Positions 30,301-31,927 of a DNA stretch of 39,094 nucleotides are shown piece by piece. Numbering within the stretch: position 1 is the stretch's first letter; every line of letters starts with the position of its first letter. The position numbers and the translations under genes were made by a program. Source of the DNA: Tricharina praecox (lineage: Eukaryota); assembly GCF_024521635.1 (NCBI RefSeq), contig NW_026250429.1:496001-535094 (forward strand), written 5' to 3'. The notes beneath the pieces were generated by a model. That model did no database searches, was not told where the DNA came from, and saw only the letters and a program-made list of their open reading frames with translations.

Positions 30301-31927
30301 TCCCAACGTTGCATCCAGAGCTACAAGTCCCTCTCTTTTCTTTGGTAATAAAAGACTGAAGACCGACAAGGAGAGGCCTTCCATTAAGAATAACTTCAAC
30401 CCATTCGAGAAGATGAAGAAGGCCAAGGCCAATACCCCTGCACCCAGCTACGTGGAGCCCGCTGGCAATGCGAACGATTACATTGATATGCCATGGTTCA
30501 CGACGCCGACATGGCCTACGGCAGACGCAAACAAGGACAAGTCGTACAAAACCATGTTTGCCATCAAGGTTGAAATTGACCAGAGCGCCGTTCACTCGCC
30601 CCAGCCGCCGCACATGATGCCACCGCAGCCACACCATCCTCAGATGGCACATATGCCGCACATCAACCATCCGCCCCACGTGCCTCACCAACCACACCCT
30701 GGACAGATGCAGCAGCATCTTGGGATCCCCCAGCATTACGAACAGGACGCCCATCTCAGGCAAATAACATCACCTTCTGTGATACCCTCGCCGAGTCTCC
30801 ACACTGTAGCGATGGTTCCTTACCAATCACCGGTACCCCCCCCGTCGCAAATGGCTATGTACCCTGGCCAGCAAGGTGCAATGGGACAGTATCCTGGCGC
30901 TCCCGGAGGTCCGCAATTTGGCGGATACTACAATAATGGTTTCAGAGGAGCCGCAGGCAACCCGATGATGATGCATGGTCCCCAACCGGTCCCGTATCCA
31001 GCTGGGCAGATGGGCGGTCAGTTCGCGCAACACCCGCCGATGTACGGCTCGCCCCAGCAGCCGCAGGCGTATATGAACGGGCCACCTCCGCCAACCTCCC
31101 AAGGATTCCCTAGCCCCGGAAGGCCGGCGCCGACGATGATGATGCATCAAGGCTCCTCTCAGGGAACGCCGGGAGGAGCCCAGATGATGCCCTACGGCAT
31201 GCAGCCTGGACAAGGCGGACCGATGTACAACGCCCAAGGCCAACAGCCGCAGCAAAGTGAGTTACCCCCAACAGGCCCAGCTTGGTTGCCCCCGCGTTCT
31301 CAGTCCACTGTTCCCTACTCCATCTCCTCCCCCCGCGCACGCTACAGCCACATGTCTGGCCAGCCCTCTGTTCCTGCTGCTCCTGGTACTCCCTTGCTTT
31401 CTCCTGCTCTGGCCGCCTTCGCATCACCCACTTTGGCGCCTGTCCCTGGCTTTTCGTCGCAACCTCTCCAAAGGAGTCAGACAGCCAACAAGGCTCTGGA
31501 TGAGAGTCGAGGGGTTGGCCGTGGAAGGGGCGGTAAGGGTTACCATGGTGGCTATAGCGGCAACGGAGGGGGCCGGGGAGGCCGGGGTGGAAACATGAAC
31601 AACGCAGGTCCAATGCCTCACGTGCCCGGACGTCCGCAGGACAATACTTTGGTGGACACATATTCTAACGAGGGGTCAATGAATACAGTGGGAATGATGC
31701 GTGGCCAGCCACTACCGCCGCACCAGAACGGGCCACCGCCGCCTCAGTACTACCACGGTCCTCAAGGCCACTACCCCAACAACCGGGGTAACTACGGTGG
31801 ACCGTCGAACGGACCTCCTCCCCAGCAACAGCAGCAGCAACAGATGGCGCCGCCGCCACAGCCACAGCCACAGCAGCAGCCACCCCAACAACAGCAGACT
31901 GTTGAAGCCGGCGAGGACGGTAAATAA
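27391..31927 (+). CDS. PBP1: Pbp1/ataxin-2 family PABP-binding protein (LSm, LsmAD, PAM2, Met/Pro/Gln-rich low-complexity tail); 1120 aa fully spliced, 1264 aa if the last intron is retained
   Basis: Exons 27391-27560, 28010-28211, 28350-28626, 28703-29075, 29155-31256, 31689-31927 (3363 nt). Motifs: HMHDRTLFLL|GKEVTVTVKSGAQYTGIL (LSm), [41 protein letters not shown]...AARIAAEIEG...HIAEERG...DEEDKYSGVQR (LsmAD), ELKKFSENFTLKTAVPTDLVPILTKD, and PAM2-like LNVNARPFEFRP. Confidence 0.93.
30092..30150 (+). repeat. CAG/CAT/CAA codon repeat encoding (QQH)n in Pbp1
   Basis: cagcagcagcagcatcaacagcatcaacagcatcaacagcaccagcagcatcagcaacac. Confidence 0.85.
31257..31688 (+). other. Frame-preserving, stop-free intron (exitron-like) in PBP1
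   Basis: Donor GTGAGT at 31257, branch CTAAC at 31665-31669, acceptor TACAG ending at 31688. 432 nt = 144 codons, and the ORF track reads straight through it. Confidence 0.75.

Follow-up and report, generated by a model that had tools for sequence, protein, structure and literature searches.

The closest known kind of element to the one described here is represented by the in-frame retained introns of the yeast genes PTC7 and NUP116/NUP100, which, in the published account, were recognized by intron coverage of at least 10% of the junction reads, a length that is a multiple of three (3n) and the absence of in-frame stop codons (PMC7491326). These introns are 3n and stop-free with a substantial unspliced share, both features are conserved across species, and the two mRNAs, spliced and unspliced, give rise to two proteins, one of which has an additional internal segment (PMC7491326). 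A similar description would apply to the last intron of PBP1, the ataxin-2 orthologue, in a stretch of 39,094 nucleotides (nt) from Tricharina praecox (NCBI RefSeq assembly GCF_024521635.1, contig NW_026250429.1, positions 496,001 to 535,094 of the forward strand), which was analyzed as a whole and is referred to below as the window; all coordinates are those of the window. The intron in question (31257..31688, plus strand) is 432 nt long and lies in phase 1, and its retention adds 144 residues to the protein in frame. As stop-free 3n introns are generally selected against, according to PMC2911113, a conserved PBP1 intron of this kind and length is notable.

The yeast cases carry a different payload, i.e., a transmembrane helix in PTC7 and a Gle2-binding site in NUP116, as compared to a predicted disordered insert of 144 residues within a low-complexity domain in PBP1 (PMC7491326). 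For PTC7, two proteins have been demonstrated that are both functional (PMC7491326, which cites the original work by Juneau et al., 2009); for PBP1, two such proteins are what we infer. At 408-435 nt, the PBP1 intron is also much longer than the retained introns of PTC7 and NUP116 in that account, and the clades differ (Pezizomycetes for PBP1, Saccharomycotina for PTC7 and NUP116/NUP100).

The PBP1 gene of the window shares with yeast Pbp1 the order of an SM-ATX domain, an LsmAD domain and a Met-rich C-terminal low-complexity region (PMC10237644). In yeast, Pbp1/ataxin-2 is a model for regulated self-association by a Met-rich low-complexity domain, and both the self-association, which proceeds through Met residues, and the binding of Puf3 map to this C-terminal region (PMC10237644, which cites Kato et al., 2019 and Yang et al., 2019). 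The window gene differs in that its low-complexity domain is split by an optional insert that is Met-poor and Arg/Gly-rich. No splice variant of the Pbp1 low-complexity domain is described in the literature consulted on yeast Pbp1/ataxin-2 (PMC10237644), and the terms "RGG", "exitron" and "Ascomyc" have 0 occurrences in the main text of a survey of the ataxin-2 family, the supplementary tables of which might list isoforms (PMC12898128). Likewise, the literature found on fungal exitrons, Pbp1/ataxin-2 isoforms, splicing in Pezizomycetes and in-frame retained introns contains no description of the event.

The initial annotation of this locus had called the intron exitron-like, a label that fits in part. 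Exitrons, a concept reportedly put forward by Marquez et al. in 2015 for plants and animals, are GT..AG intervals inside a coding sequence (CDS) that are 3n and stop-free, have an exon-like G+C content and weak splice signals, and derive from an ancestral exon. The PBP1 intron resembles them in being internal, alternatively spliced, stop-free and 3n, with coding flanks, exon-like G+C content and apparent selection at the protein level. Unlike exitrons, it carries full consensus splice signals, and its position appears to be ancestral as an intron position, since outgroups show at this site either a short stop-bearing intron or neither intron nor insert, rather than a coding exon.

We consider it highly probable that the last PBP1 intron in Pezizales is a conserved, alternatively retained coding intron. 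As both RNA forms occur, and as the retained frame continues that of the gene, is conserved and appears to be under purifying selection, two protein isoforms, a short one and one that is longer by 144 residues, are likely. The spliced mRNA, i.e., the majority form, encodes a protein of 1120 residues in which the Met/Gln/Pro-rich C-terminal low-complexity domain is continuous; the unspliced mRNA would encode, in frame, a protein of 1264 residues in which a putatively disordered segment, rich in Ser/Pro/Ala and in Gly/Arg, splits this domain. The long form may well be translated and useful, and the insert may alter the self-association of the low-complexity domain or its binding to RNA or partners; by analogy with the yeast protein, an effect on the self-association of the Met-rich region and on Puf3 binding is plausible. 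A natural variant with an insertion of 144 residues would give an evolution-tested handle on the tolerance and tuning of this domain, and the intron is a clear filamentous-fungal example of a long 3n intron without stops that is constrained at synonymous sites as well as at the level of the protein. Recognition of the event would also correct conflicting public models of the orthologues.

Splice signals, reading frame and transcripts

The signals of the last intron were all found where the initial annotation had placed them, i.e., the donor CAAA/GTGAGT at 31257, the motif TTCTAAC at 31663-31669 and the acceptor TACAG ending at 31688. The 5' splice site GTGAGTTA (31257..31264, plus strand) is the same in all 12 DNA sequences compared (the window and 11 orthologous loci, see below), as is the CAG of the 3' splice site (31686..31688), which is also confirmed by the joint in the RNA contigs. 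The branch-point motif (31663..31669, plus strand), which would be read as Y-S-N if retained, is TTCTAAC in 11 of the 12 sequences and TTCTGAC in the remaining one (L037). GTGAGT, TTCTAAC and CAG match the corresponding signals of the gene's other introns and are thus consensus rather than weak signals.

Translation confirmed that the interval of 432 nt (3 x 144) contains no in-frame stop; the reading frame of the gene is open from 29009 through the intron to the TAA at 31925-31927, while the five other frames of the window intron contain 1 to 7 stops. The probability that a frame of 145 codons is open by chance was 0.0125 when calculated from base composition and 0.0106 in 20,000 mononucleotide shuffles, in agreement with the earlier estimate of about 1% or less. 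The G+C content is 0.60 in the last intron vs. 0.49-0.54 in introns 1-4. Splicing joins A/TG into a junction Met (...QQ-M-GMMRGQP), a joint seen both in RNA contigs and in orthologous proteins.

Transcript evidence came from contigs assembled from two public RNA runs of different studies (X1 and X2, each with 98% of the sampled words), which were placed on positions 27400-32700 with one depth figure per contig. These contigs skip the four upstream GT..AG introns and are therefore RNA-derived. At the last intron the assembly forks, with one contig ending at 31256 and another beginning at 31689. The intron path, a 492-nt contig (31227-31718), showed depths of 42.5 (X1) and 43.9 (X2), and the joint 31256->31689, which skips 432 nt bounded by GT..AG, showed depths of 61.2 and 156.7, respectively; the depth of the upstream exon (112.8 in X1 and 196.1 in X2) approximates the sum of the two paths. 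As judged from contig depth, the retained share is roughly 41% in X1 and 22% in X2, and the spliced form is the majority. Intron coverage relative to the joint (42.5 vs. 61.2 and 43.9 vs. 156.7; contig depth, not read counts), 3n length and a stop-free frame are thus the same properties that define the retained introns of PTC7 and NUP116 in PMC7491326.

Conversely, introns 1-4 showed zero depth. Intron 1 (27561..28009, plus strand; 449 nt, GTGAGT..CAG, joint present in both runs) is fully spliced despite a length close to that of the last intron; its two whole bins (27577-27930) had a depth of 0, and mixed bins showed exon-only coverage. The zero coverage of introns 1-4 argues against both DNA contamination and general under-splicing. 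Both RNA forms exist, and retention is specific to the last intron; the toggling predicted by the initial annotation was thus borne out, as spliced junction (31256/31689) and intron coverage were both seen in the contigs of X1 and X2. Two metatranscriptomes (X3 and X4, with shares of 0.09 and 0.06) were set aside as having no evidential value; they gave mismatched coverage of the Q-repeat and the Q/P-rich 3' end only.

Selection on the retained frame and on its synonymous sites

Selection was analyzed with a GY+F3X4 codon model on seven sequences, using 92 gap-free insert codons (codons of the splice signals were dropped) and 644 exon codons. The ratio of nonsynonymous to synonymous rates (omega) of the insert was 0.29 in the gene frame, as compared to 1.58 and 2.59 when the alignment columns were shifted by one and two bases, and was 0.10 in the exons. 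Nei-Gojobori estimates of dN/dS in the insert ranged from 0.07 to 0.34 for close pairs. The differences at the three codon positions numbered [5,4,21] between the window and locus L001 and [2,1,8] between L006 and L007, which sum to [7,5,29] (P = 2e-6; chi-square test). These data indicate that the retained frame is under purifying selection. Two of the signs that the initial annotation had proposed to look for in orthologues, conserved openness (18 of 21 sequences) and a dN/dS below 1 within the intron (omega of 0.29), were found.

Synonymous sites, on the other hand, diverged less in the intron than in the exons. The proportion of synonymous differences (pS) in intron vs. exons was 0.193 vs. 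0.464, 0.301 vs. 0.786 and 0.075 vs. 0.234 in three pairs of sequences (P = 6e-8, 6e-22 and 1e-4, respectively; Fisher's test), i.e., synonymous divergence was 2.4 to 3.1 times lower in the intron; there is thus a second, nucleotide-level constraint, which acts on synonymous sites near the donor and over the initial two thirds of the intron. In sliding windows of 60 codons, a zone of lowered synonymous divergence that spans the donor was located at 31100..31560 (plus strand; borders approximate), with a pS of 0.07-0.16 vs. 0.3-0.6 elsewhere when the window was compared to L001 and L002. The dip begins approx. 50 codons ahead of the donor and reaches its lowest values within the initial 100 intron codons, and it recurs in the Tuber-like clade (L006 vs. 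L007). Among close relatives, the intron shows less divergence than the exons on either side of it.

In mammals, alternatively spliced coding regions show a lower synonymous rate and a raised dN/dS as compared to constitutive exons. The PBP1 intron shows the same combination of lowered dS and raised dN/dS, centred on a regulated splice site, although it differs from the mammalian cases in belonging to a filamentous fungus and in lying inside a retained intron. The combination suggests that the coding sequence also carries cis-elements, which may set the ratio between spliced and unspliced forms.

A more far-reaching proposal, which we put forward only tentatively and would not favor as it stands, is that the intron constitutes a regulated switch within the coding sequence, in which synonymous-site elements near the donor set the unspliced share and the insert retunes condensates and partner binding. 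Under such a switch, the unspliced share would perhaps respond to metabolism, redox conditions or development, or be set by an action of Pbp1 on the RNA that encodes it; a spacer composed of Arg/Gly and Ser/Pro parts, with the conserved motif LQRSQT, would split the Met-rich domain; and this layer of control would have been kept in most of the order and lost in one sublineage.

It is also conceivable that conservation reflects a non-coding function of the RNA or DNA (e.g., splicing control, detention or a structured RNA), with the retained RNA representing an untranslated reservoir and the open frame a side effect. Such a function would agree with the synonymous divergence being 2.4 to 3.1 times below that of exons and with a dip that spans the donor in two separate clades; in addition, the donor can pair with an invariant sequence approx. 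35 nt downstream and with 31426-31435, and retention of the last intron is common among detained introns. However, a non-coding function does not predict the excess of third-position differences ([7,5,29]), an omega of 0.29 in one frame vs. 1.6-2.6 in the others, or the findings that all indels are 3n and that a single frame is stop-free in 12 of 12 sequences. The RNA-level analyses also argue against it: an Rfam scan of 31100-31800 at E <= 1 yielded 0 matches, i.e., no known intronic snoRNA or other family; the predicted fold of 31237-31708 (-179.5 kcal/mol) was not unusually stable as compared to shuffled sequences (mean -182.4 kcal/mol, z = 0.41); and RNAalifold analysis of 7 introns gave a covariation term of 0.17, i.e., about 0, and no supported structure. 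Overall, we regard a purely non-coding explanation as unlikely, and the non-coding constraint is probably a second layer rather than an alternative to coding.

With regard to the pairings themselves, the donor GUGAGUUAC (in the region 31257-31301) pairs with GCGUUCUCA approx. 35 nt downstream, and this sequence is invariant in 7 of 7 aligned introns; its conservation appears inseparable from constraint on the splice site and on the peptide. In addition, CAAAGUGAGU at the 5' splice site is complementary at 9 of 10 positions to 31426-31435; L001-L003 carry a T->C change that lessens this complementarity. Either pairing could mask the donor; covariation lends no support to them. A repeat search returned short two-copy matches only.

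Orthologues, outgroups and alternative readings

A first protein search returned 17 proteins, and a second one, started from the most distant locus, returned 20 more. Eleven proteins of the first search (P0002-P0009, P0011, P0012 and P0014) read through the intron in frame. Exactly the intron stretch is missing (...QQ(Q)MGMMRG...) from P0010 and from the NCBI models of Trichophaea (P0013), Morchella (P0016) and Geopyxis (P0017); P0015, the model of Pyronema omphalodes, retains only the first 48 insert residues, and P0018 stops upstream of the intron site. P0010, the open reading frame (ORF) of a contig from which introns 2-5 have been removed, equals the NCBI model of Sphaerosporella brunnea, P0022, minus exactly 144 residues; therefore, a spliced transcript and an annotated long protein coexist in S. 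brunnea. In the second search, the insert was found to be kept in the NCBI models of Rhizina undulata (P0039) and Tuber aestivum (P0042) and in P0041, while it is spliced out in the NCBI model of T. melanosporum (P0040). Two Pezizaceae models (P0034 and P0035) derail at the donor, P0053 terminates at the donor-equivalent site, and nine Orbiliomycetes models and one Thelocarpon model, all annotated proteins, lack the insert. Public models of the orthologues disagree at the intron site, with 3 keeping the insert, 4 splicing it out, 1 keeping part of it and 2 derailing at the donor. P0041 and P0037 do not count as RNA evidence, since both are genomic ORFs in which intron 4 is either missing or translated through.

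Three proteins from the Morchella side (P0036-P0038), which are genomic ORFs, end within a visibly decayed intron frame. Recognizable pieces of the insert (SELF..QNWL.QRPQS and GLSSYPLQ) are still present in them, and two of the three have a GTAAG-type donor (SK in place of SE). These lineages represent a natural loss of the long isoform. When protein and DNA readings are tallied together, 18 of the 21 distinct sequences from Pezizales have an open intron frame; the stops or frameshifts in orthologous introns that the initial annotation had named as evidence against its proposal thus occur in three of the 21 (P0036-P0038) and in none of the other 18.

A scan of metagenomes seeded by motifs far upstream yielded 51 loci, among which 11 Pezizales-like loci that reach the 3' end (L001-L010 and L037) are free of ORF-call bias. 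In all 11, a single tblastn segment runs across upstream exon, intron and downstream exon to the stop codon of the gene. The intron lengths on DNA are 432, 435, 435, 432 (x3), 408 (x5) and 420 nt, i.e., multiples of three in 12 of 12 sequences, and the gene frame alone has 0 stops in 12 of 12, as compared to 1-9 stops in the five other frames. These comparisons indicate that frame, 3n length and splice signals have been conserved in five families of Pezizales, and the arrangement is found in most of the order.

Outgroup loci with a C-terminal match numbered 32, of which 28 could be assessed. In 26 of the 28, a stop codon occurs 28-44 codons past the MMHQ anchor, approx. 15 codons or less from the donor-equivalent site; the other two are L030, with a 51-nt stop-free intron at the site, and L044, with no intron. 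In Pezizales, by comparison, 235-265 codons lie between the anchor and the stop codon of the gene. Given these differences, the intron position is old and the long coding body specific to Pezizales, and, because the outgroups hold a short non-coding intron at the ancestral position, the coding body was more likely gained inside the intron than the intron carved from an exon.

Several points weigh against a conserved, alternatively retained coding intron. The evidence that the long form is translated consists of selection signatures; the omega of the insert (0.29) is approx. 3 times that of the exons, and at greater depth (window vs. L006) the insert diverges faster than the exons (dN of 0.44 vs. 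0.24). Neither a covarying RNA structure nor an Rfam family accounts for the low synonymous rate. The decay of the frame in the three related lineages P0036-P0038 indicates that the long form is dispensable there. The protein matches are ORF calls and hence biased towards open frames, the 11 Pezizales-like loci represent only 5 distinct lineages, and P0006, which was read as the retained-intron transcript of a third species, could be genomic if introns 2-4 were lost there. Finally, the RNA evidence consists of contigs rather than reads, so that contig depth is a rough measure of the retained share; no library type is recorded for X1 or X2, and the intron path may include nuclear pre-mRNA; and the joint 31256->31689 carries the flag "between: not known".

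The initial annotation had further noted a second donor in the same phase and had envisaged up to three isoforms. The second donor, GTAAGG at 31533..31538 (plus strand), is indeed present and in phase, and its use would give a 156-nt intron, keep the Ser/Pro part and drop most of the Gly/Arg part. A hint that an internal site is used somewhere comes from Pyronema omphalodes P0015, with its first 48 insert residues. However, no 31532->31689 joint was found in the contigs of either RNA run, although contigs may drop rare forms, and a GT is present at this site in only 3 of 12 DNA sequences: L003-L005 have lost it through a synonymous GGT->GGC change, and L006-L010 and L037 lack it. We thus consider a third isoform very improbable.

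Slightly less probable still, in our assessment, is an ordinary intron that is open by chance, the retained RNA of which represents splicing noise or unprocessed precursor. A single frame of 145 codons is open about 1% of the time at the given composition, intron retention is reportedly the commonest splicing variant in fungi, and the frame is broken in three lineages. On the other hand, chance would not keep frame and 3n length in 18 of 21 sequences from five families, nor would it produce selection that is frame-specific and an intron that is more conserved than its flanking exons in close relatives; retention of 22-41% also contrasts with zero coverage of four other introns, including one of 449 nt.

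The last alternative, that the stretch is simply exon and never removed, which the initial annotation had itself named as a possible outcome and to which an exon-like G+C content (0.60 vs. 0.49-0.54 in other introns) and three public gene models that treat the stretch as coding lend some appearance, is practically untenable, as the joint 31256->31689 is present in both runs and deeper than the intron path, precisely these residues are missing from P0010 and four NCBI models, and no variation occurs in donor, branch point or acceptor apart from the single TTCTGAC.

The insert and the PBP1 gene

The composition of the insert is distinct, as the initial annotation had stated, with 4 Met and 10 Arg per 145 residues as compared to 13 Met and 2 Arg in the 120 residues upstream. 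Its best-conserved internal motif is LQRSQTAN (31466..31489, plus strand), of which Q72, R73, Q75, T76 and N78 are invariant in alignment A2, including the distant L037; the motif is also found in P0019, P0039 and P0042. LQRSQT.N is the sole strongly conserved motif of the insert that is clear of splice signals, as the other conserved parts, i.e., SEL..W(L/V)P.R at the 5' end and YS(N/D) near the 3' end, overlap them. We take the motif, in which Leu and Arg occupy positions -5 and -3 relative to the Thr, to resemble a basophilic kinase site of the AMPK/Snf1 type.

The Gly/Arg-rich stretch, an RG/RGG box at 31508..31591 (plus strand), contains 3 RGG and 5 RG in a cluster. The initial annotation had proposed that retention toggles this box into the low-complexity domain. 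The box is not the conserved core of the insert across the clade: it is full in the close relatives of the window, but only 1-2 RG remain in the Tuber- and Morchella-like sequences, and L037 and P0019 have none.

A Pfam search of the insert found 0 families, and a profile built from eight inserts had 3 matches among 1.84 billion representatives, all of which are C-termini of Pezizales Pbp1 proteins. The possibility that the insert is a copy of a neighboring exon was rejected (best BLASTP E of 0.2). AlphaFold2 modeling on alignment A2 gave a mean pLDDT of 53.5 and no secondary structure, consistent with a disordered insert.

The PBP1/ataxin-2 orthologue of the window lies on the plus strand and has six exons, the junctions of which are fixed by the RNA contigs of X1 and X2 (CDS 27391-27560, 28010-28211, 28350-28626, 28703-29075, 29155-31256 and 31689-31927); when spliced, it encodes 1120 residues without an internal stop. 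Its best named relatives are Trichophaea, Pyronema, Geopyxis, Sphaerosporella, Morchella, Tuber, Rhizina and Kalaharituber, all of which belong to Pezizales, and it is nearest to Pyronemataceae-like sequences. Exon 1 (27391..27560, plus strand) starts with the ATG at 27391 and is joined to exon 2 (28010..28211, plus strand) at 27560/28010 in the contigs of both runs; exon 2 is supported by the RNA contigs and the joined CDS. Exon 3 (28350..28626, plus strand) encodes the ataxin-2 SM domain (SM-ATX, Pfam PF14438, on 28350-28625; E of 2.1e-15, 57.1 bits, cut-off 29.8) and exon 4 (28703..29075, plus strand) the LsmAD domain (Pfam PF06741, on 28705-29073; E of 1.2e-24, 87 bits, cut-off 25), both with RNA-supported junctions. 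Together with the Met-rich C-terminal low-complexity region that follows, these domains show the order of the ataxin-2 family.

Exon 5 (29155..31256, plus strand; RNA contigs and translation) encodes the long disordered part of the protein, comprising a Q/H repeat, a PAM2-like stretch and the Met/Gln/Pro-rich low-complexity region. The sequence LNVNARPFEFRPNP of this exon is conserved in alignment A1, and its stretch LNVNARPFEF is presumably a PAM2-like motif for poly(A)-binding protein. The Met-rich C-terminal region has 13 Met in the 120 residues ahead of the last intron and 17 in the 200 C-terminal residues of the short protein. Exon 6 (31689..31927, plus strand; RNA contigs), the first two bases of which complete the ATG codon of the junction, ends with the TAA stop at 31925-31927. 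It is followed by a 3' untranslated region (UTR) that covers at least 31928..32557 (plus strand), as contigs end at 32462 (X1) and 32557 (X2).

A run of (CAG CAG CAT)n at 30085-30150 codes for QQQQHQQHQQHQQHQQHQQH, the Q/H repeat of exon 5. The close relatives P0002 and P0003 have only short QQQQH/QQH at this place, and the RNA contigs of X1 and X2 break at the repeat, with many loose ends. The run is a lineage-specific repeat expansion. In the 3' UTR, a dense cluster of GGGATG/GATGG repeats at about 32290-32500 is transcribed, as the contigs reach 32462 and 32557; positions 32304-32334 were skipped as a repeat in the placement of the contigs.

Intron 1 ends in ...ATGTACAG and contains an in-frame ATG at 28003. 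The ATG that matches it is the start of the S. brunnea NCBI model P0022 and of the contig ORF P0010 (MYNRRNSS...), while a start at 27391 agrees with P0013, P0015 and P0016. As the RNA of the window joins 27560/28010 and the start lies at 27391, the N-terminus of P0022 is probably too short, or else an internal start is used.

Intron 4 (29076-29154) is apparently absent in the Tuber-like loci L006-L010 and in P0041, where a single ORF covers the LsmAD region and continues in the long exon. Downstream of PBP1, at 33342-35250 on the minus strand, two long open frames of 270 and 452 residues are rich in Ser, Arg and Glu.

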